From Abditibacterium sp. (GTDB lineage Bacteria; Armatimonadota; Abditibacteriia; Abditibacteriales; Abditibacteriaceae): a DNA stretch of 64,000 nt. The DNA is taken from the NCBI GenBank assembly GCA_965199495.1, contig CBDASK010000003.1, positions 4,224,001 to 4,288,000 of the forward strand, given 5' to 3'. The notes under the pieces were generated by a model, which was not told the DNA's origin, did no database searches, and saw only the letters and a list, made by a program, of their open reading frames with translations. Both the position numbers and the translations under genes were made by a program. Of the stretch, positions 2-32,822 are shown piece by piece (positions within the stretch are counted from its first letter, which is position 1; every line of letters begins with the position of its first letter).

Positions 2-2533
2 GTTTGGCCCAAACTTCCACGTTTTTTTTGAGCGCAATACGCGCAGTTCTTCGCCTCGCCACAGCAGCTTTTCTCCCCAGCGTGCGGGCAAAATTTGATC
101 GTTCAATGTGAAATCAAAGCGACGCGGCGCGCGCCCCTCGAACTCGCGCCAGATCGTCTGGGCCAGAGATTGGGCGTAGGCATCGAAGGCCATTGAGCCG
201 ATGAACTCTTGGCGAACCAACAACCAGCGCGGCCACGACGCGATTTCCGAAAGTGGATCGGTGGCTGGAAGCGGCGTCGTCGCCAGCCCGGTGAATATTG
301 ACGGCACATAATTCTCATAGCTGCCTTCGGGCGCTTTCCCCCAAACCGCTACTCTTGTGTATGCGTGCTCAAGTAACCCCTGTGCCGAATACGCTGAAAG
401 TATCGGCCACGCGCTCAAGCGGTCGTCCTGCGTTACGTCTATGCCCGACGTCGTTTCGTGCAACGTGTGGATTTTTTGACCACGCTCTGCGAAGATTAAA
501 TTTGAGTGCCCGTAAACGAACGCGCCTCGCCCGCCCTCGGTCGGCCCCATCGCCGGATCGTAGAACCACGCTGCATAATCGGCCTCGCCCAGCGTATCGG
601 CCCATTTCTCCACGTCCGAGCCAAACGGCGGCGCCAAATCGAATCCGGCTTTCGTCGGTTGATTGGTGCTGCGGAAATAGTCGTTTCCCGAACTGGATTT
701 GAGCGGATAATGGTTGCGCGGCAAGTAGCGCGACCAATCACCGTTCCCATTGAGTGCGCCCGCCCAATCGCTGCCCAACTCGTAGCCGATTAACTTTTGA
801 AAACATTGTCCTCCGTAGAGATTGCCTCCGTGTTCGTGCAAATCCAAATCGAGCGGCGCATACCGTTCGTTGACCAGCGCCGCTGGCGCGCGCAGCCGAA
901 TGCGTGGATCGAGAGCCGTGATCGAGAAATGTTGGTTATTGAAACCGTCGCTGCTTCCACCATCGGGCAACAAGTATCCGAAAAAGTCGCGCGCCCAGTT
1001 GCCGTCGTTGTTGACATCAGATTCGATGAGAATGGGACGAAACGGCAAAATTGCGGCTTCCCAACCGGGCACATGACGCTTCAGCATCTCAACTGAAACT
1101 TCGAGCTTGGCCTGCGCGCTGGGCAGCGATTCGGGATCGCCCGATTCGACTTCCAGACTGTCCATCGCCATGCGAAAATTAACCGGCGCGGGCGGAGGCG
1201 TGGGCGCCGTCGGTGGAAACTGCGCGGCGAAGCACATCAAAACGGGCGCTATCTCTCGCGTGCCGCGCAGCTTCACGCTGTAGTCAATGCGCCCAATACC
1301 ATTTTCAGACTCGTGCCACTTCGCGTTGATACTGGTTCTTTCCAAATCGGTGCCCAACATCTGCGCCTTGCCTTTAGCCAGCAACGCGTTGATGACCTCA
1401 TCGAAGAACGAAATACCAGTAGTAACGGACGTTTCATTGGGAAGGGGAATTCGCGTAATTTCGTCGCTTTTGCACTCCCACTCGACTGCGCTTGACGGCG
1501 GCGCGGCGGCAGGCACTTCGCGGTCGAAATTGACCTCACGATCAAACGACAACTTTGCGAATTGGATCACGACATCGGCGCCAAAAATTGAGACGCGCAA
1601 AGGCGACGCACGCCATGTCACGGGCGAAAACGTCGGCGAGTTGTTGGCGCCCTTTTTAGCCTGTCCAACCCACCATGTTTCACCATCGATCTCGACTATG
1701 AGCAAACCCGCTTGGATGTAGACCGTCACCACATGACGAGACTTCCACCATTTCTCATCCAGCGCGCCCGCGTCGTCGAAACGCCTGATCAATCTCCATC
1801 GTAACTGGGCGTTTTTATCAGCGCCTTTGCGTTCGAGTTGGACGCGCGCGGTTTTGCCGATGCCGCGAAATACCAGACTCCAACTATTGCCCCACTCCAA
1901 TCGAATCGCAGGCTCACTGGCATGTCCCCACGCCACGCCGTCACAATCGAGCGACCAACTCACGCCTTCATCGGCGCCCCACTGCTCACTGCGAACCTTG
2001 ACCGTGCGATTGGCGGGCGCGGCGCGGTGGTGCAGCCCCGCCCACTGCGGGAAGCGAAGCGGAATCACGCACTCCCATTTGTCGCCCTGTTGGGTGAACC
2101 AATGAAGCACTATCTCACCTTGAGGCAGACGTGGGCGCAGATCGTAATCGGGACTGCCGGGCGGTTTCGCAGGGTCTTCAATCGTCGAATGAACGCGCTG
2201 AAACGCGGGGCGAACCGTCCATCCGCAAAGTTCTTTTTGAGGGTTGGAAGCGGCGGCGGCGCGAACGCCGCGTTCGATGCGGCCACTGCGGTCGCCACCG
2301 ACAAAGCGCACCCATTCCATCGGGCCACTCACATTCTTGATGTATTGTTGGCCTTGCCATTCAAGCGCCTCGAAACCTGTCGCAGAGTTACCTTCGCCGC
2401 CCTCACCTCTATCGGGCAAAATCAGCCCCGAATAGGAATCGTGGAGAGCTACCGGCGTGCGGTAAGCCGCGTCGGGATCGAGCGGCCACACCCACACGCG
2501 CACCTCGGAGTGGACTTCCTGAAGTTGGGGCAT
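2..2533 (-). CDS. Large tail/baseplate-region protein, >840 aa, truncated by the left window edge (absent from the ORF track)
   Basis: ATG at 2533 overlaps the stop of the upstream gene; manual translation (MPQLQEVHSEVRVWVWP...RSKKTWKFGPN) found no stop down to the window edge; function inferred from position after the tape measure. Confidence 0.75.
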   Translation of the reverse strand, partial: MPQLQEVHSEVRVWVWPLDPDAAYRTPVALHDSYSGLILPDRGEGGEGNSATGFEALEWQGQQYIKNVSGPMEWVRFVGGDRSGRIERGVRAAAASNPQKELCGWTVRPAFQRVHSTIEDPAKPPGSPDYDLRPRLPQGEIVLHWFTQQGDKWECVIPLRFPQWAGLHHRAAPANRTVKVRSEQWGADEGVSWSLDCDGVAWGHASEPAIRLEWGNSWSLVFRGIGKTARVQLERKGADKNAQLRWRLIRRFDDAGALDEKWWKSRHVVTVYIQAGLLIVEIDGETWWVGQAKKGANNSPTFSPVTWRASPLRVSIFGADVVIQFAKLSFDREVNFDREVPAAAPPSSAVEWECKSDEITRIPLPNETSVTTGISFFDEVINALLAKGKAQMLGTDLERTSINAKWHESENGIGRIDYSVKLRGTREIAPVLMCFAAQFPPTAPTPPPAPVNFRMAMDSLEVESGDPESLPSAQAKLEVSVEMLKRHVPGWEAAILPFRPILIESDVNNDGNWARDFFGYLLPDGGSSDGFNNQHFSITALDPRIRLRAPAALVNERYAPLDLDLHEHGGNLYGGQCFQKLIGYELGSDWAGALNGNGDWSRYLPRNHYPLKSSSGNDYFRSTNQPTKAGFDLAPPFGSDVEKWADTLGEADYAAWFYDPAMGPTEGGRGAFVYGHSNLIFAERGQKIHTLHETTSGIDVTQDDRLSAWPILSAYSAQGLLEHAYTRVAVWGKAPEGSYENYVPSIFTGLATTPLPATDPLSEIASWPRWLLVRQEFIGSMAFDAYAQSLAQTIWREFEGRAPRRFDFTLNDQILPARWGEKLLWRGEELRVLRSKKTWKFGPN

Positions 2534-4986: not shown

Positions 4987-5376
4987 GTGGCTGCTGTTGA
5001 TAGCAGCCACGTCGCCCTTGGCCTTGACATGAAACTACAAGCCAAAGGAGACAGCAAACAAAAGCGAGTGACTCGAATTGTCCTCGAAGCCGAAACGCGA
5101 GCCGACGAAGCGGTTTTATATGCGAAGTATTTGGAGTTGAAGGAAGAGACTCCTAAGCTCGCGTCAATCTACCAAGACGTGCTCGACCTGGTCGAAGAGG
5201 GCATCGGCCTCGCCTCCGAAATTTCCGATGCTCTCGACGTTCCTCTGACCGCAATGAACAACCGTCTGGCTCACCTCAAGAAGATGGGCCTCATAGAGCG
5301 CGAAAAGGTTGCCGCCCCTGCTGGCGGGCGCCGCTTCATTTATCGAATTAGTTCGACGGAACAAGGAGATGCTTGA
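4987..5376 (+). CDS. Winged-helix DNA-binding protein (start possibly 5029)
   Basis: ASEISDALDVPLTAMNNRLAHLKKMGLIER...GGRRFIYRI wHTH pattern. Confidence 0.75.
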   Translation: MAAVDSSHVALGLDMKLQAKGDSKQKRVTRIVLEAETRADEAVLYAKYLELKEETPKLASIYQDVLDLVEEGIGLASEISDALDVPLTAMNNRLAHLKKMGLIEREKVAAPAGGRRFIYRISSTEQGDA

Positions 5377-6005
5377 TGAGCGATAAAACTTTCGGCGCAC
5401 GACTGCGCCAGATGCGCGAGGCAGTCGGCATCAGTCGGCGTGACTTGGCGGCGCGCGCGCAACTTTCCGAAACGTATATCGAGAAGGTGGAGCGCGGATA
5501 CAATGCGCCGCCGTCGGCTTTAGCGATTGCCGACATTGCGCGCGCGCTCCGAGTTGACGGCGATGAGCTTTTCGCCCTTGCGGGCAAGCTGGCGCCCGAC
5601 TTGGAGCGCCGCTTACGTTCGGAGCCGTTATTAGTGCTGGCCTGTCGTGCAGCCACGGCGATGTCGTCTTCTGACTTGCGAGCCTTCTTGATCACGCAGG
5701 GAGTGAGCGGGGAGAAGATGGATTGGCAGGGCGCCGAGGTGACGATGAACGACGAAAGGCGGGTGCGGCGGGAGATTATCACTTCGGAAATGAAGCGCGC
5801 AGTCTTTCATCTTGACAGTCACGAGTGCGTTTATTGTTCGTCGGCGAAGTTGCTTGAAGTTGATCATGTTCAGCCGTTTTCATCGGGCGGCACCAATGAC
5901 ATTGAAAATCTGGTGACGGCTTGCGAGAGGTGTAACAAGAAGAAGTCGAATCGTGCCACGCCGTTTGTTATGGTGTTTGGGCGATTTCGGGGGGAGGTAA
6001 AATAA
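5373..6005 (+). CDS. XRE HTH fused to an HNH endonuclease
   Basis: N-terminal FGARLRQMREAVGISRRDLA...YIEKVERG; C-terminal CVYC...EVDHVQPFSSGGTNDIENLVTACERCNKKKS. Confidence 0.9.
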   Translation: MMSDKTFGARLRQMREAVGISRRDLAARAQLSETYIEKVERGYNAPPSALAIADIARALRVDGDELFALAGKLAPDLERRLRSEPLLVLACRAATAMSSSDLRAFLITQGVSGEKMDWQGAEVTMNDERRVRREIITSEMKRAVFHLDSHECVYCSSAKLLEVDHVQPFSSGGTNDIENLVTACERCNKKKSNRATPFVMVFGRFRGEVK

Positions 6006-6007
6006 TT

Positions 6008-7345
6008 ATGAAACGAATGCGCGCCTACAAAGTGGAGCTTGCTCCGAATAATACTCAGAAAACCGCACTGCTTCGTCATTGCGGTGCGGCGCGATTCGTT
6101 TACAATTGGGGACTAAACGCCAAGATCGAAGCTCGCAAAGGCGGCGAAAAGCCTCTGTCCGCCCAAAAGCTGGACGGAGTTTTGCGCTCGATCATGGACG
6201 AAGAATTCCCTTGGATGCGAGAGGTTTCGTCCCAATGCCGCCAGGGGGCGCTCGCCAATCTTGAAGCGGCTTACAAGAATTTTTTCACTCGCTGCAAGAA
6301 AGGCAAAAAGGGGCGCGCAACTGGCTTTCCCAAATTCAAAAGTCGCAAGAATGGACTCGGAGGGTTCGTCGTCTTTGGATATACCATCACGAATGACTCG
6401 GTAAAAATCTCTCGCGTCGGCACCGTTCGACTCAAAGAAAAGGGCTATTTACCGATTGGAGGCTATGGAAAAAATTCTGATACCGTGCGCTTTTATGGTG
6501 CGAGAGTGAGTGAGCGGGCGGGTCGATGGTTCCTTTCTGTTCAAGTTGAGGTCGAAGCGCCCGAACCTGATCAGAAGTCGGAGAGGATTGTTGGCATAGA
6601 TTTCGGCGTGAAAACGTTAGCGGTTTGCAGCGATGGCACCACGTTTCAAAGCCCCAAGGCGCTCAAGGCCAATCTGAAGCGGCTGGCGCGCGCGCAACGT
6701 TCGATGAGCCGTAAGATTGAAGCGGCTAAGAAGTCTGGCCGCGCCTTGCGCGAGTGCAAAAACTTTCAGAAGTCAAAGACGCGCGTGGCGAAAATCCACG
6801 CGCGAGTGGCCGATTTGCGGCGCCATAATCTGCACCACGTTTCTCATGTGCTGACGCGAAAATCAAGCGTTTTGTGCATCGAAGATTTGAACGTGGCGGG
6901 CATGGTGAAAAATCGGCATTTGGCGCGCGCGATTAGCGATTTAGGCTTTGGAGAGTTACGCCGTCAAATCGAATATAAATCGGAGTGGCGCGGCGTTGAA
7001 GTCGTGATTGCAAATCGTTGGTTTCCCAGTTCAAAAACGTGTAATGCGTGCGGACTGGTGAATCAGGAATTACAGTTGAAGGATCGAGAATGGAAGTGTG
7101 AGTGTGGCGAGCGGCATGACCGCGATTTGAACGCCGCTTATAATTTGAGAGATTTGGCCGCGAATCGCGCGGTGTCTGACTGTGGAGGGAAAAGCTCTGG
7201 CGATGCGCTTGCGCGTCGTGAAACTATTCCCTGTGAAGCAGTAAGCGGGCTTGAAACTCTGGTTTCTATCAGCCCCGCACCTACTGAGAACAGTAGCATC
7301 CCTGTGTGGGCGGTCGGGAAAAACGGACAATTACGATGGTGTTAA
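6008..7345 (+). CDS. tnpB: TnpB / Cas12f-like RNA-guided nuclease with intact RuvC
   Basis: RAYKVEL...ARFVYNWGL N-terminus, FPKFKS, RuvC-I GIDFG, RuvC-II IEDLNV, zinc finger CNAC/CECG, RuvC-III DRDLNAA. Confidence 0.95.
   Translation: MKRMRAYKVELAPNNTQKTALLRHCGAARFVYNWGLNAKIEARKGGEKPLSAQKLDGVLRSIMDEEFPWMREVSSQCRQGALANLEAAYKNFFTRCKKGKKGRATGFPKFKSRKNGLGGFVVFGYTITNDSVKISRVGTVRLKEKGYLPIGGYGKNSDTVRFYGARVSERAGRWFLSVQVEVEAPEPDQKSERIVGIDFGVKTLAVCSDGTTFQSPKALKANLKRLARAQRSMSRKIEAAKKSGRALRECKNFQKSKTRVAKIHARVADLRRHNLHHVSHVLTRKSSVLCIEDLNVAGMVKNRHLARAISDLGFGELRRQIEYKSEWRGVEVVIANRWFPSSKTCNACGLVNQELQLKDREWKCECGERHDRDLNAAYNLRDLAANRAVSDCGGKSSGDALARRETIPCEAVSGLETLVSISPAPTENSSIPVWAVGKNGQLRWC
7150..7324 (+). ncRNA. 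TnpB omega/reRNA-like scaffold ending in an anti-repeat (tracrRNA-like); 5' boundary approximate
   Basis: Hairpins at ~7200-7219, 7245-7278 and 7281-7296 (CTACTG-AGAA-CAGTAG); CATCCCTGTG (7297-7306) and GGGAAAAAC (7316-7324) are reverse complements of repeat nt 15-24 and 1-9. Confidence 0.75.
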
Positions 7346-7363
7346 ATCCTATCTGTCATGTGT

Positions 7364-7514
7364 GTTTTTCCCACACGCACAGGGATGGATGGAATACCTC
7401 AAGGCGACCGGCGAACTGCTCGATGTTTTTCCCACACGCACAGGGATGGATGGATTGTTTTCCGACCAACTACACCGAAGCGGGCGTTTTTCCCACACGC
7501 ACGGGGATGGATGG
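7364..7514 (+). CRISPR. CRISPR mini-array: 3 x 29-nt repeats, 2 x 32-nt spacers, type I-E-derived
   Basis: GTTTTTCCCACACGCACAGGGATGGATGG at 7364-7392 and 7425-7453, A18G variant at 7486-7514; spacers AATACCTCAAGGCGACCGGCGAACTGCTCGAT and ATTGTTTTCCGACCAACTACACCGAAGCGGGC; 61-nt period. Confidence 0.93.
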
Positions 7515-7559
7515 CCTTGGGAGGGGCCGGTTGCCTGATGCGTCATTATTGGTGTGGGG

Positions 7560-7680
7560 TGAAGGCACAATGGCTATATGTGGACTTTCTGCGCGGGTGG
7601 CGCCGCGCTTGCACAAAAGTCGCTTGGCATTTATATGGCGACGCGACAATCTCCCTCGAAAGAAATATGAGTAAGGCAAT
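7560..7680 (+). pseudogene. Relic C-terminus of a LAGLIDADG-type homing endonuclease
   Basis: HLYGDATISLER followed by a frameshifted KYE resembles the LYxxATIxLxRKY tail of phage LAGLIDADG proteins. Confidence 0.45.
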
Positions 7681-7722
7681 AGTAGCATTAGCGACCTCAT
7701 CGAATACTCGCCGCCATCATGA
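7681..7722 (+). pseudogene. 3' relic of an XRE HTH gene paralogous to 4008-4232
   Basis: Translates SSISDLIEYSPPS* versus SSISDLIEYHAS* in the intact gene; nucleotide differences over the 9 shared codons are all synonymous. Confidence 0.6.
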
Positions 7723-7723
7723 A

Positions 7724-7752
7724 GTGTTCCCCGCGAGTGCGGGGATGAACCG
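7724..7752 (+). CRISPR. Solitary canonical type I-E repeat
   Basis: GTGTTCCCCGCGAGTGCGGGGATGAACCG, 7-bp stem TCCCCGC/GCGGGGA; no partner repeat 61 nt up- or downstream. Confidence 0.85.
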
Positions 7753-7902
7753 ACTGAGTGAGTTAGCTTTCGCAACGAAGCGATGGCAAAAGCGTCGTAT
7801 AAAGTCCCGCAAAGTGAATCTCTTCTTTTGACCCTTGTCAAAGGCATTAAATTCGCTAAAATTAAGTGAGTGATTCATTCACTCACAGGAGGCAAAACAT
7901 CA

Positions 7903-8124
7903 ATGGCAATAAAATCACGGTCAAGGACGTTCACTGTCGAGCCGTCTTACACAGAACTGGTTAATCCCGCACTTTTTTTGAAGATGTGCAAAAGTAGCAG
8001 AGAAAACATCGAGTTCGTTCGCATAGTCCCGCCGCGCCTCGGCAGCAAAACGGTTGGCGGACGAATTTTGGTCAGGCGCAAAAAACCCATCTATCGGATG
8101 CCATTTCGGAGTCCGATTAAATGA
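7903..8124 (+). CDS. Small basic hypothetical protein (moron)
   Basis: AGGAGG RBS; ATGA overlap with the next gene. Confidence 0.65.
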   Translation: MAIKSRSRTFTVEPSYTELVNPALFLKMCKSSRENIEFVRIVPPRLGSKTVGGRILVRRKKPIYRMPFRSPIK

Positions 8125-8588
8125 TGAATCTGCCTGAAAACAACAACTCAGCGTCAGAGCCACAATCCCTGATTCAAAACCCAGAAATTTTGGCTGTGAT
8201 GCTGAAAAACCAAGAGTCTGAAATTCGAGTCCGCAGCGAAGACATCAAGTTTAAAGACAAAGAGCTTGGCTTACGTGAACGAGAAATAGATAAAGCTCAC
8301 GAGTTCGCAATGAAGTCGCTTGATGTGCAGGCATCAGATAGAGTCGATGAAAGGAAGTTTCAAAGGTCTCTTACGACCAAAATATTTTTGTTTCTTGGGA
8401 TTGCCTTAAGCATGATTGTTTTGGGGTTCTGCTATGCCATTCATCTTGGTAAAGATGCAATCGTGATGGAAATTGTCAAAGCGATGATTTATCTGGGTGC
8501 TGGCGGTCTTGGTGGCTACTCTGCAAAATCCACCAAAGATAAAAAGAAAAATGATGATGAAAGCTGGGCAGAAGAAGACGAGGATTGA
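8121..8588 (+). CDS. Coiled-coil plus two-TM membrane protein (low-GC moron)
   Basis: IFLFLGIALSMIVLGFCYAI and IVMEIVKAMIYLGAGGLGGY hydrophobic segments; AT-rich coding. Confidence 0.75.
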   Translation: MMNLPENNNSASEPQSLIQNPEILAVMLKNQESEIRVRSEDIKFKDKELGLREREIDKAHEFAMKSLDVQASDRVDERKFQRSLTTKIFLFLGIALSMIVLGFCYAIHLGKDAIVMEIVKAMIYLGAGGLGGYSAKSTKDKKKNDDESWAEEDED

Positions 8589-20712: not shown

Positions 20713-20929
20713 CGTTTGTGCTTAGATGAGCGCGCAGACGCTTTTCGCGCTCGCAGTTCACGTCCACGACCGTCGTCAGGTCGCGCCGCCGAATGCGAAT
20801 GGCTCCCGTCACCAGTGAAAGCTCGAAGAGCAAGCGTCCGTTAGCGTCGTGAATAGGTTCCCATTCTTTGGGGAGCATTTGGGTTTGATTCATAGGCTTA
20901 TTCTTCGTCCTCTGCTTCCCAACTTTCAA
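20696..20929 (-). CDS. Hypothetical protein
   Basis: ORF; start probably at an internal Met. Confidence 0.45.
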   Translation of the reverse strand: MKVGKQRTKNKPMNQTQMLPKEWEPIHDANGRLLFELSLVTGAIRIRRRDLTTVVDVNCEREKRLRAHLSTNVGASR

Positions 20930-21377
20930 GCCATTCGCTCAAATTGTCAGCGATGACGGCCAGATCGGAAACTTTCGCGTTTTCGGGCGCGGTCTCGTGA
21001 TCCCAGAACAGTATCGCACCACTCCCAGCGTCGAGACAGGCGAAGTTACCGCCCGCATCAATGGCGAGCGGCACACAGCCTTTGGGCAAGCGGTCGCCCA
21101 GCAACCCGACGGTCGTTTCGACATCGTAAGCGCCACCGACAAAACCAAGCGTGGCCGTCAGTTCGGTTTGGCCCTCGTCAACGGGGAACGTGACTTCGCT
21201 CCATCCGTGGCCACCGCACACGCGCAGAAAATCGCGAACCTCGGTGGCCAACTCGCCATTGATCTGTTCGTCGAGTCGGTCACAGGCCGCATCGAAATCG
21301 TCGCCCTTTGGTTGCGGTTTGCCAAGTTTGTAGGCACCATATTTTTCGAGCAGGGCGGAGAAACCTTCGGAGTTCAT
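20898..21377 (-). CDS. SMI1/KNR4 (SUKH) immunity protein
   Basis: LATEVRDFLRVCGG...LPKGCVPLAIDAGGNFACLD...ILFWDHE...IADNLSEWLE. Confidence 0.9.
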   Translation of the reverse strand: MNSEGFSALLEKYGAYKLGKPQPKGDDFDAACDRLDEQINGELATEVRDFLRVCGGHGWSEVTFPVDEGQTELTATLGFVGGAYDVETTVGLLGDRLPKGCVPLAIDAGGNFACLDAGSGAILFWDHETAPENAKVSDLAVIADNLSEWLESWEAEDEE

Positions 21378-21395
21378 AGAGAATAAAAGTATCGG

Positions 21396-21845
21396 TTATT
21401 TGGAAGCGCACAGACTGTGCCCACCGGTGTGGTGCGCGGCGTTGTGGATAATGGTCGGCACCAAGATCATCTTCTGGCGATTGCAATCTTCGAGATGATG
21501 CCAGGTCAACTCTTTCTCGGTGCGCAACCGTTTGACGCGCGCGACATCGGGCTTGCCGTTCTTCTTTTTCCAACCCAGCTTCTCGGCATAGGCCGCGTCG
21601 GCTTCTTTAAAATCTTCGTTGCGGTCGCCATGAAATTCAAGGTAAATGCGGCTCGAAATCGGGCGCCCTCTCTCTCCCCGCTCGCGCGCGATGAACGGCT
21701 CCAATCGAGGGAAACCGCGCCTATACTGCACGCCGCGTTGCCCAGTCGCTTCAAGCGCTGTTCGCACGGAATCGGCTCCGAACAAGCCATCGGGCGGGCG
21801 CCACAGCGAGTTGCCGCGCTCGCCCTCGAACCCCTCGCGCGGCAT
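21396..21845 (-). CDS. WHH-type HNH/EndoVII nuclease toxin domain
   Basis: GVQYRRGFP...RNEDFKEAD...LTWHHLED...MILVPTIIHNAAHHTGG; directly followed by SUKH. Confidence 0.9.
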   Translation of the reverse strand: MPREGFEGERGNSLWRPPDGLFGADSVRTALEATGQRGVQYRRGFPRLEPFIARERGERGRPISSRIYLEFHGDRNEDFKEADAAYAEKLGWKKKNGKPDVARVKRLRTEKELTWHHLEDCNRQKMILVPTIIHNAAHHTGGHSLCASK

Positions 21846-30684: not shown

Positions 30685-31509
30685 TTAATCCACCCATACG
30701 ACGCCGCGCCTCTCCCACAGATCGGTCATCGTCTCTTCCAACTTCAACAGATTGCGGATGCTGCGGCGGCAGATCAGTTCCAGTCCCGCCTGCGAGCGCG
30801 ACGACGGTAACGCGCCCGATCCGACGATGTCGCCGTTGCGCCCGTTCTCCATCACCATTTTGCCGTAGCGAAAGCAGTTCACCCACGACGACGAATCGGC
30901 GGAGTAAAACGGAAACGCTTCGAGCATCGCCTGGCCGGTCGCCGCCAATCCGTGGAAGCGCGGCAGACCTTTCACGCCATGCGCGCGCACCAGATGTCCC
31001 AGCACCTCGCGCAGCCACGCGCACCGTTTGGCGGTCGACAAATCGTTGCGCGGCGAGAGGCCGATCACGGCTTTCGTATCGGGACGGCGCGCGATCAGTT
31101 CGTCCAGAAAACTCCATGGCTCGTTCTGGTGAAAGACTTCCACTGTGCACAATCCCGCGCCCCGCAAAGCATCGGCGTTACAAAGGCTCTGCTTCATGCC
31201 CTGCGCGATCTCGCTCGCCGTGGCTGTGCGCCCGGCCTCTCCCGGAATTACGTCCAGATTGATGATGTGGGCGATGGGCCACTTCTCCTGCACGCGGCGC
31301 GCAATCGGCAAATACTGCGTAAGCGTCACCGGCACGCCCGCGTTCCACGCCGAAAACGCGCCCGAATCCAGCAGCAGATAACCGGGCATATAAGGCAACT
31401 GTTCCAACCCACCCATGTAAATCTGCGAACACAGGATGTTGGGCGGCGCCTCCGAGGCGATGATGTGTTGAGCATTGCCGTTGCTCGACACGGCGAAAAC
31501 CATCTTCAT
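30685..31509 (-). CDS. dpdA: DpdA-like DNA guanine transglycosylase (TGT fold)
   Basis: LLDSGAFSAW, LDVIPG, FHGLA, PFYSADSSSW; adjacent to que genes. Confidence 0.8.
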   Translation of the reverse strand: MKMVFAVSSNGNAQHIIASEAPPNILCSQIYMGGLEQLPYMPGYLLLDSGAFSAWNAGVPVTLTQYLPIARRVQEKWPIAHIINLDVIPGEAGRTATASEIAQGMKQSLCNADALRGAGLCTVEVFHQNEPWSFLDELIARRPDTKAVIGLSPRNDLSTAKRCAWLREVLGHLVRAHGVKGLPRFHGLAATGQAMLEAFPFYSADSSSWVNCFRYGKMVMENGRNGDIVGSGALPSSRSQAGLELICRRSIRNLLKLEETMTDLWERRGVVWVD

Positions 31510-32822
31510 AGCGGTTTATATCCCGGTGGCTTCGCGTCGTTTCCGTCAATGCCGGATGCTTTAAGAAAATCAATGGACAAACTTGAGCCAGAACCATCCA
31601 CGCGATCATCGTTTTCCATCGCCGTGCGATGAGCCGTCACGACAAGGCCAATGCCGCCGCGCCGGTTCTGGGTGACTGTGACGCAGCATGAACTCGGCTC
31701 AATCGCAGCCATCACGTCGGCGGCGATGCGCGCGGCCAACTGCTCGCAGAACATTCCCTCATCGCGAAACGCCCACAGATAGAACTTGAGCGCCTTCGAT
31801 TCGAGCGCCCACTCGCCCGGTTCGCAGGAGATCGAAACCGTGCCGAAGTCGGGTTGGCCAGAGCGCGGGCAAACGCTGGTGAATTCCTCGCACGCGAAGC
31901 GAATCTGACTCACATCAGGCGCTTCGATGCGTTCGTTACGTAACGAAATCGCTGCTTCGTCCAGCGAGTTCGGGCGTGGCAATGGACCGCTTTTGGGCAG
32001 AGACGCCATTTCTCTCTCTCCGACGTGCAGTTGCGCGTTGAATTCTATCTTGATTTCCTTGGCCGCTCCAGACTCCTGCATTTTGACATTCCATTGAGCG
32101 ACGATTTCGGTAGAACCGCTCCAATCGAAGAAGCCTTTTGCGCGCGTTTGGCACGCCGGACAAAATCCGCAACCGTAGCCCCACGGATAGTGCTGCGTAT
32201 GATTGCCGTTGTAGCAGGTGTGCGTATGCTGAATGATCGTTTCCGTCACGCTCAGTTCATCGGCCAACATCCACGTTTGCGATTTGCTGAGATGCATCAG
32301 CGGCGTTACGATTTCCAGTTCAGAAAAGTCCATGCCCAAACGGAGCGCATTTCCCAACTGCCGGATCGTATTTTCGCGGCAGTCGGGATAGCCCGCGTGA
32401 TCTTCCTGGCAGACGCCGGTGTAAACCCGCGTCGCGTTCTGCTTCATGGCGAACGCCGCCGCCAGCGTCAAAAACGCCAGATTACGGCCCGGCACGAACG
32501 AAGCGGGCAAATGCGCCAATTTGGGATGCGCCTGGCTCACGTCGCCGCCCGTCACCAGAGCCGAATCGGCAAAATCGCACAAAGCGGGCACCTGCGACAC
32601 GAAAAGCGGCACGTTCGCCAGTGACGCGATCTGCGCGGCGAAGCGGCCTTCGATTTCGTGCTTCTGGCCGTATTGAAAATGAATCGCGGCCACGACTTCG
32701 CACTCGCGTTGCGCCAGAAACAGACACGTCGCCGAGTCTTGACCGCCGCTCAAAACGACGATGGCGCGCGGTTTGGTTTCGAGTTGAGAACCGAGTTCGG
32801 GAGGAAGGGGAGAAGTAATCAT
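31506..32822 (-). CDS. queC: QueC (preQ0 synthase) fused to a C-terminal QueF nitrile reductase domain
   Basis: SGGQDS, VPGRN, YPDCR, CY...CGFCPAC; then EFTSVCPRSGQPDF, ESKALKFY, RRGGI. Confidence 0.92.
   Translation of the reverse strand: MITSPLPPELGSQLETKPRAIVVLSGGQDSATCLFLAQRECEVVAAIHFQYGQKHEIEGRFAAQIASLANVPLFVSQVPALCDFADSALVTGGDVSQAHPKLAHLPASFVPGRNLAFLTLAAAFAMKQNATRVYTGVCQEDHAGYPDCRENTIRQLGNALRLGMDFSELEIVTPLMHLSKSQTWMLADELSVTETIIQHTHTCYNGNHTQHYPWGYGCGFCPACQTRAKGFFDWSGSTEIVAQWNVKMQESGAAKEIKIEFNAQLHVGEREMASLPKSGPLPRPNSLDEAAISLRNERIEAPDVSQIRFACEEFTSVCPRSGQPDFGTVSISCEPGEWALESKALKFYLWAFRDEGMFCEQLAARIAADVMAAIEPSSCCVTVTQNRRGGIGLVVTAHRTAMENDDRVDGSGSSLSIDFLKASGIDGNDAKPPGYKPL

Follow-up and report, generated by a model that had tools for sequence, protein, structure and literature searches.

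Does a short CRISPR array (short palindromic repeats, clustered and regularly interspaced) that lies directly behind a tnpB-type gene provide guides for the encoded nuclease, or are the two only neighbours? The question is raised by a stretch of 64,000 nucleotides (nt) from a 4.8-Mb chromosome of an Abditibacterium species (G000:C3:4224001-4288000), hereafter called the window. In it, a gene for a TnpB-type RNA-guided nuclease of 445 amino acids (6008–7345, + strand, stop codon 7343–7345) is followed, after a gap of 18 nt, by three 29-nt repeats and two 32-nt spacers. The answer that we favour, with a probability of about 0.68, is that a prophage here carries a type V-like CRISPR effector, compact and of TnpB size, of the kind known as TranC (transposon–CRISPR intermediates) or V-U.

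The gene product has the architecture of a TnpB. Pfam finds a helix–turn–helix (HTH) domain (HTH_OrfB_IS605, PF12323, 8.8e-15), the OrfB_IS605 domain with the RuvC nuclease (PF01385, 6.3e-25) and a zinc-finger domain (Cas12f1-like_TNB, PF07282, 4.3e-23). A first-pass annotation of the stretch had described the RuvC triad as intact, in agreement with an alignment of 14 homologues in which D198, E292 and D373 occupy invariant columns. The RuvC-III motif DRDLNAA is present. The genome contains one close copy of tnpB and one relative of 26% identity. No transposase family is found among the neighbouring genes (transposon ends were not searched for), and in this respect the locus does not look like a mobile insertion sequence (IS). 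No Rfam family matches positions 5500–8500 at E<=1.

All coordinates and sequences given in the first-pass annotation check out, including the layout of the array. Repeat 1 (GTTTTTCCCACACGCACAGGGATGGATGG) spans 7364–7392 and is followed by spacer 1 (7393–7424), the identical repeat 2 (7425–7453), spacer 2 (7454–7485) and the distal repeat 3 (7486–7514), which carries one A>G change; all are on the + strand. The unit of one 29-nt repeat and one 32-nt spacer, with a period of 61 nt, has the format of a type I-E array. The hairpin and the 3' end are not those of type I-E: of the stem, the repeat has only CCC/GGG left, and its last bases are GGATGG. The mini-array repeats are type I-E-like and were probably captured rather than born from the guide-RNA scaffold of the nuclease. 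The repeat has no other occurrence in the genome, and no variants of the array were seen in the contigs of the probable source run, which break at the repeats. A solitary canonical type I-E-like repeat (GTGTTCCCCGCGAGTGCGGGGATGAACCG), not mentioned in the first-pass annotation, also unique in the genome and 61% like the mini-array repeat, is located 210 nt after the mini-array (7724–7752, + strand). It has a CCCCGC/GCGGGG stem and ends in ATGAACCG (...AACCG). Many short contigs of one sequencing run of the same study (X3) contain a repeat that is near-identical to it (summed depth ~349). One 91-nt contig of this run holds two such copies ~28 nt apart and therefore points to a real type I-E array in that community. 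Further short direct repeats (D2–D4) were discarded as chance, about two to three such pairs being expected.

The last ~190 nt of the tnpB open reading frame (ORF) double as coding sequence and guide-RNA scaffold. When the tails of 23 members of the clade to which this TnpB belongs are aligned, a conserved hairpin with the typical loop AGTTC is seen ~40 nt after the DRDLNAA codons, and conservation stops at ...GGAGAACGG. The window has this family-wide hairpin as CCGCG-AATCG-CGCGG (7158–7172, + strand), with a loop (7163–7167) that is predicted to be one partner of a pseudoknot. The complement of a tail's own loop followed by GG occurs in 25 of 33 distinct tails, compared with 13 of 297 for the complements of other loops. 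Variant loops are exactly compensated: AGTCC goes with the scaffold end GGACGG in L170, AGTTA with TAACGG in L215, AGGTA with TACCGG in L108 and AGTTG with CAACGG in L206. The loop AATCG of the window likewise goes with CGATGG (7334–7339, + strand), where CGAT is an exact 4-nt complement of ATCG and GG comes next, a pattern shared with the other homologues that have variant loops. This covariation between sequences is good evidence that the scaffold of the family forms a pseudoknot beside the guide. A pseudoknot in this place is also present in the solved TnpB and Cas12f RNAs. With its conserved hairpin and covarying pseudoknot, a structured scaffold overlaps the 3' end of tnpB.

Judged by this pairing, the native scaffold end of the window is probably CGATGG, at 7339, ~45 nt past the canonical position. 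The canonical end of the clade (GAGAACGG) survives as a vestige, GAGAACAG (7286–7293), inside a second hairpin, CTACTG-AGAA-CAGTAG (7281–7296, + strand), which is found in minimum free energy (MFE) folds. In L078, a relative without an array, this hairpin reads CTTCCG-AGAA-CGGGAG, which is a compensatory change. The segment from the native scaffold end to repeat 1 (7340–7363, + strand) would by its position be a leader or a 'guide 0', and has no second match in the genome. Its neighbour on one side, CGATGG, and the 3' end of the repeat, GGATGG, are alike in all but one base. A similar relation recurs in other array-bearing loci of the clade, which together with the window have the altered loops AATCG, AAACA, AAACG, AAATG, AAACT, AAAAC and AAATCCA and the repeat ends GGATGG, GATTGG, GTTTGG, ATTTGG and GGTTGG, with three to four loop-complementary bases before GG. 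A different motif, GATCATCACCTA, is located ~140–215 nt after the DRD codons in the tail of L284; it is common to L284 and L290, upstream of their arrays, and may be a conserved scaffold stem of this subclade.

Directly after the vestigial scaffold end lies a segment complementary to the repeat (7297–7324, + strand), the anti-repeat. CATCCCTGTG (7297–7306) is the exact reverse complement of repeat nt 15–24 and GGGAAAAAC (7316–7324) that of repeat nt 1–9; the predicted pairing covers repeat nt 1–9 and 13–24. RNAduplex gives −35.5 kcal/mol for this pairing versus −23.5 ± 2.8 kcal/mol for shuffled repeats, none of 300 being as good. The site is also the best partner of the repeat among 6394 segments of 60 nt on both strands of the 64 kb, the array's own antisense excepted (mean −15.0, s.d. 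3.6, runner-up −32.1). In the MFE fold of 7280–7400 (z = −5.2) nucleotides 7297–7325 pair with 7363–7387, while GATGG (7388–7392) is left free, as the first-pass annotation had predicted. Since the shuffle test, the ranking over the 64 kb and the MFE fold agree, the pairing is not attributed to chance. A repeat paired in this way would put GAUGG and the spacer where the ancestral guide began.

The anti-repeat is part of an insertion of ~28 nt relative to L078, where the sequence jumps from AGCAATC directly to TTTAAGATGGACGG. L078 is the nearest relative with available DNA (genome G002, same genus, 67% identity) and lacks both the array and the segment; the first-pass annotation would have taken array-less close homologues with the 7297–7324 sequence as a refutation, and L078 does not provide one. 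Two other explanations for the segment were dropped. A guide of an obligate mobile element-guided activity RNA (omega-RNA) aimed at CRISPR repeats does not fit, as conservation in P0002, P0003, P0005 and P0006 extends over the encoded GKNGQL, past a guide of 16–20 nt, and the pseudoknot partner CGATGG is at 7334–7339. Insertion of an IS into an inverted repeat does not fit either, as there is no array upstream of tnpB.

The association of nuclease and array is conserved in relatives. Besides the window, searches through genomes and through viral and metagenomic contigs turned up the array-bearing loci L195, L093/L094, L090 (genome G221), L280, L284, L290, L292, L293 and L295. Their arrays are always downstream of and on the same strand as tnpB, with 29-nt repeats and a period of 59–63 nt. 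All ten array-bearing loci fall into a clade of 28 rows in the FastTree phylogeny (support 91); a quick IQ-TREE run on an earlier sample gave a clade of 25 rows with a support of 98 in the Shimodaira–Hasegawa-like approximate likelihood-ratio test (SH-aLRT). A downstream array is present in ten of the 13 evaluable clade loci (the exceptions being L078, L281 and L294) versus none of 28 rows outside the clade. Here, absence means that no 20-mer recurs (<=2 mismatches, 50–75 nt spacing) in the 900–1000 nt after the match, some of the outside rows having only 300–460 nt of downstream DNA. The near-duplicate contigs L094, L282 and L283 were excluded from the count, and L089, although in the clade, could not be evaluated because its contig ends 20 nt after the gene. 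The link between TnpB and array proposed in the first-pass annotation is supported. The description as a candidate nascent system is not upheld: the TnpB of the window is no one-off and belongs to an established clade of CRISPR-associated TnpBs.

Most of the array-bearing loci are on viral contigs. L093 is situated between the large terminase and portal genes and L195 follows genes for thymidylate synthase and ribonucleotide reductase; none of 32 flanking ORFs in six viral loci matches a Cas family of Pfam. Arrays of phage-borne relatives are short, with two to five repeats in L093, L280, L284, L290, L292 and L293. The one chromosomal case is G221, where beside the clade member repeat matches extend over ~67 units (G221:C2:36926-40995, L218), 27 of them exact and the degenerate ones at the far end. 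A degenerate distal repeat is thus common to the G221 array and that of the window. The G221 array is surrounded by housekeeping genes, Cas1 was not found in this genome, and the best match of the array's spacers to phages has an E of only 0.1. The tnpB gene is present in one of 16 genomes of the family of G221, namely G221 itself.

The nearest proteins, P0002–P0009, are metagenomic, were compared as proteins and are 60–79% identical (P0002–P0006: 65–79%). The metagenome scan gave 46 loci, and P0002–P0006 are not among them. A scan of genome contigs gave 69 relatives, none above ~40% identity in the main alignment, and only four of 401 genomes of the phylum have a tnpB match at E<=1e-80. At the DNA level, 5400–8200 is without a match in the phage database; tblastn against the same database returned 418 records, each with less than 60% identity, and the 40 of them that were listed include no Lalka phage. 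The repeat pattern gave no match in viral contigs. A 15-mer (GGGAAAAACGGACAA) had 57 matches there, none beside a TnpB, and these were judged to be chance. A type I-F-like array (GTTCACTGCCGCATAGGCAGCTTAGAAA) is found in L181 (3609–3927), 2.3 kb downstream of a canonical TnpB from outside the clade, to which it is probably unrelated.

Relatives differ in the way in which the array is joined to the scaffold. L284 has an anti-repeat of its own (−33.4 kcal/mol, none of 300 shuffles as good), placed as in the window after a vestigial GAAC. The repeat 5' end opposite its GTGGGATTCAAC is a different one, GTTGAACCCAC. In L093, L090, L292 and L293, repeat 1 starts a few bases after the scaffold end. 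In addition to plain omega-RNAs, the clade thus seems to include two ways of building in an array. The plain form is represented by L078, whose scaffold (G002:C52, locus 1400–1560, minus strand) continues to ...AAGATGGACGG. L078 has the look of a one-piece omega-RNA regained secondarily, since the sister protein P0005 has the GKNGQL extension.

These observations suggest how the locus could work. One transcript, begun at tnpB or at an internal start, would cover the scaffold and the array. A repeat would pair with the anti-repeat, in cis for repeat 1, which would give a natural single-guide fold, and in trans for processed CRISPR RNAs (crRNAs). Pairing would place GAUGG and the spacer at the start of the ancestral guide, with GAU forming the pseudoknot, and the spacer would guide RuvC cleavage of DNA next to a protospacer-adjacent motif (PAM) or transposon-associated motif (TAM). 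The first-pass annotation had given as a refuting outcome that TnpB loads only an RNA with its own guide, ending shortly after 7326; as the cis scaffold end (7334–7339) is kept, use of an RNA of this kind, ending near 7339, may coexist with that of crRNAs. The cis form, with guide 0 after 7339, may thus still work and make the locus dual-mode. New spacers would probably be added by the type I-E Cas1–Cas2 of some host, which we propose on the basis of the 61-bp unit and the degenerate distal repeat. By analogy with Cas12r, a nuclease of Thermus phages, the system is likely to be used in conflict with other mobile elements. The use against competing elements put forward in the first-pass annotation is an analogy only, and no spacer target was found.

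Several results weigh against an effector that works in this way. There are just two spacers in the array; no target was found for them in their own genome beyond chance (best match 19 nt with one mismatch, E 0.07) and no convincing one in phages (E at least 0.3). None of the listed sequencing runs is recorded as RNA. No type I-E adaptation genes were found in the host, and for this reason the array may be frozen. The correspondence between scaffold loop and repeat end covers only three of four bases; because its register varies and L280 fits poorly, it is counted as suggestive only. Related repeats of other loci pair with the upstream region of the window at −31.8 to −33.8 kcal/mol, close to the −35.5 of its own repeat, so that the specificity of the pairing rests on the exact matches of 10 and 9 nt. 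The anti-repeat region translates as IPVWAVGKN. At the protein level IP and GKNGQL are conserved in P0002, P0003, P0005 and P0006, with GKNGQL altered in P0004; this conservation in P0002–P0006, where only proteins were compared, could reflect protein constraint. Finally, the anti-repeat is weak in L290 (17 of 300 shuffles as good), L195 and L280 (36 of 300 each) and not detectable in five of the ten array-bearing loci (L093, L090, L292, L293 and L295), from which it follows that the clade does not generally need one. The proposal of a scaffold resembling tracrRNA (trans-activating CRISPR RNA) stands in so far as the anti-repeat of the window is statistically real and L284 has its own; in the eight other array-bearing loci an anti-repeat is weak or not detectable.

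The absence of an anti-repeat in half of the array-bearing relatives, four of which have their first repeat a few bases past the scaffold end, also agrees with a scheme in which the array serves TnpB through crRNAs that act alone. Cas12r is a precedent: according to the passages on its RNA in bioRxiv 10.64898/2026.04.20.719267, it uses a 26-nt repeat part and an 18-nt spacer with no tracrRNA. The hairpin of 7297–7324 with repeat 1 would then be a processing site, a stabiliser, a terminator or the relic of an inverted repeat. We consider this unlikely for the window, as the family scaffold, with the loop of the pseudoknot, has been kept and shows covariation, the ancestral junction of scaffold and guide is exactly where the anti-repeat lies, L284 has evolved an anti-repeat that matches a different repeat, and in L078 array and anti-repeat are lost together. 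Another explanation is that the locus is a decaying remnant whose array and anti-repeat are leftovers that guide nothing in this prophage. The small number of spacers, their lack of known targets, the mutated third repeat and the lack of a matching adaptation module in the host all speak for such a remnant. It is nevertheless improbable, since the ORF is intact with its catalytic triad, repeat 2 is an exact copy of repeat 1, and the matches of the anti-repeat have no mismatch over 10 and 9 nt; short arrays, moreover, are usual in the phage-borne relatives and, as far as its description in the preprint goes, in the functional Cas12r.

The 29/32 format and the type I-E-like repeats, together with a canonical type I-E repeat 210 nt downstream and a matching array in the community of the same study, raise the further prospect that the mini-array hijacks the type I-E Cascade of a host and that TnpB is a mere neighbour. 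Against this, TnpB and array are syntenic in ten of 13 clade loci and in none outside, and the repeat has lost most of the type I-E stem and ends in GATGG rather than ...AACCG. Pfam families of Cas6e and Cas7e (PF08798, PF09344) have no match in G000, G002 or G221, a negative that is soft because the control search matched only Thermus and missed E. coli, and the array of G221 reached ~67 units in a genome where Cas1 was not found. A hijacked Cascade is therefore regarded as very improbable. With the TranC or V-U kind the locus shares the adjacent array, the link conserved among relatives and, in the window and L284, an anti-repeat in the scaffold.

A bolder version of this reading, which we offer tentatively and hold to be possible but doubtful, is that a single clade of mostly phage-borne nucleases, still of TnpB size, preserves three stages of the passage from omega-RNA to CRISPR. 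In the first stage there would be only a one-piece omega-RNA, as in L078 and the canonical relatives. The second would be a captured type I-E-like array that abuts the scaffold and has no anti-repeat (L093, L090, L292 and L293), and the third a scaffold into which an anti-repeat of the size of a repeat has been inserted, as in the window and L284. The locus of the window would be dual-mode, its nuclease taking up crRNAs or, alternatively, the cis guide after 7339. Its repeats would be hybrids, with a type I-E body that host type I-E Cas1–Cas2 can use and a 3' end rewritten to fit the TnpB pseudoknot. On this proposal tracrRNA-like pairing would have arisen after array capture and on several occasions, with L078 as a case of return to an omega-RNA.

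The remaining features of the window concern its surroundings. Genes for a major capsid protein, a portal, a large terminase, ParB-like and DHH proteins, metallophosphoesterases and QueC/DpdA-like proteins are found at ~8–33 kb, which places the tnpB locus in or at the edge of a prophage, as the first-pass annotation had supposed in calling it phage-encoded. Immediately upstream, a gene for a fusion of an XRE-type HTH domain and an HNH endonuclease (5373–6005, + strand) ends 2 nt before tnpB (Pfam HTH_31, 7.6e-15, and HNH, 8.3e-15; PHROG families of HNH endonucleases). The ORF upstream of the tnpB relative in G221 has no Pfam match. A promoter-like site inside the tnpB ORF, just upstream of the scaffold hairpin (7116–7144, + strand), has 10 of 12 consensus matches. 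It is a weak candidate for the start of the scaffold RNA and was not counted as evidence, because the two such sites found are not above the 1.7 expected in shuffles. Further into the prophage, a QueC and QueF-like fusion and a queuine tRNA-ribosyltransferase-like gene of the DpdA type (30685–32822, − strand) suggest that the DNA of the phage carries 7-deazaguanine modifications. Where the head genes lie, in the interval from portal to capsid gene, a protein with a nuclease domain of the WHH/colicin-DNase type adjoins a SUKH (SMI1/KNR4) immunity-type protein (20898–21845, − strand). The host has a CRISPR array of its own with 131 repeats (GTTTTAATCGGGTCTTGTGAGATTGAAAT; G000:C3:2766476-2775017), which is unrelated to the mini-array. 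The only Cas1 match of G000 (2765135–2765914) is just upstream of it.

How does the locus compare with known systems? In TnpB systems of the IS200/IS605 family (ISDra2 type), the omega-RNA or right-end element RNA (reRNA) has a scaffold that overlaps the gene's 3' end and terminates, on its 3' side, in the guide. The window shares with them the domain set, the DRDLN motif of RuvC-III and the overlapping scaffold. It differs in lacking a neighbouring transposase gene, in its single close copy, in the extension of the scaffold by the anti-repeat and in a CRISPR array in place of the transposon end. Mini-CRISPR arrays and solitary repeat units on viruses, said to have been described by Faure and colleagues and by Medvedeva and colleagues in 2019, reportedly use host Cas proteins. 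Common to them and the window is that a short array and a lone repeat unit occur in phage or prophage DNA and that the repeats are like those of the host type (I-E). In the window, unlike in those cases, the array is linked to a nuclease of its own across a clade, and the repeat resembles at its 3' end the scaffold junction of this nuclease and not a type I-E handle.

The closest published categories are V-U and TranC. Altae-Tran et al. (PNAS 2023, PMC10691335), in the parts of that paper considered here, describe 40 new V-U branches (V-U6 to V-U45) of TnpB-like proteins with downstream arrays, mostly without adaptation genes and in part among the 'typical' DRDXN TnpBs, and derive the arrays from duplication of omega-RNA segments or from insertion next to an existing array. 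The 'typical' TnpBs of 300–450 amino acids, the DRDXN motif, the downstream arrays and the usual lack of an adaptation module in these passages match the window. One supplement file of PMC10691335 contains neither the contig ids of three of the relatives nor any mention of type I-E. TranC (Jin et al., Cell 2025) is known here through citing passages (PMC13565253; bioRxiv 10.64898/2026.03.27.714800), according to which these nucleases are TnpB-derived and TnpB-sized, with several origins from IS605 and IS607 TnpBs. Functional splitting of the right-end or omega-RNA into a tracrRNA-like scaffold and the crRNAs of an adjacent array is proposed there. For the window we likewise propose a TnpB-sized nuclease that combines a tracrRNA-like scaffold with the crRNAs of the array next to it. 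Beside TranC as described in those passages, the window has type I-E-like repeats, an anti-repeat inside the ORF and a cis scaffold end that is kept.

Cas12r-CRISPR of the Thermus Lalka phages (Trofimova et al., bioRxiv 10.64898/2026.04.20.719267) is reported in the preprint passages used here to work experimentally from 29-bp type I-E-like repeats, with adaptation by a host type I-E system proposed. The parallels on that account are a TnpB-like phage nuclease, a short array within ~16–18 nt of the gene, degenerate 29-bp type I-E-like repeats, spacers of 31–33 nt and no adaptation genes. The Cas12r repeat (GTTTCTCCCGTGCGCGCATGGAGGCACCG) resembles the repeats of the present clade. As described there, however, Cas12r has 564 amino acids, belongs to a TnpB branch confined to thermophiles and uses crRNA alone without a tracrRNA, whereas the window has a 445-residue protein, a retained omega-type scaffold and an anti-repeat. 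A BLASTP comparison with PQ109076 Lalka27a_54 (Cas12r) gave a best E of 1.2 and so no significant similarity to LalCas12r / LlkCas12r. Being phage-borne with 29-bp type I-E-like repeats, ~32-nt spacers and no cas1 or cas2, the window is of the Cas12r type in its likeness of working and not by membership.

The general idea is thus already in print with TranC, V-U and Cas12r, and the value of the locus is in the particular forms that its clade lines up and in the prospect of a compact editor rather than in a new principle. If the reading as a TnpB-sized effector is true, a nuclease of 445 amino acids without domain expansion can be reprogrammed from a CRISPR array, and type I-E arrays can be taken over by an unrelated effector. 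More phages would then carry a minimal CRISPR effector of their own, probably dependent on the adaptation enzymes of their hosts. The clade would provide natural before-and-after forms for the step from a one-piece guide RNA to a tracrRNA and a crRNA.

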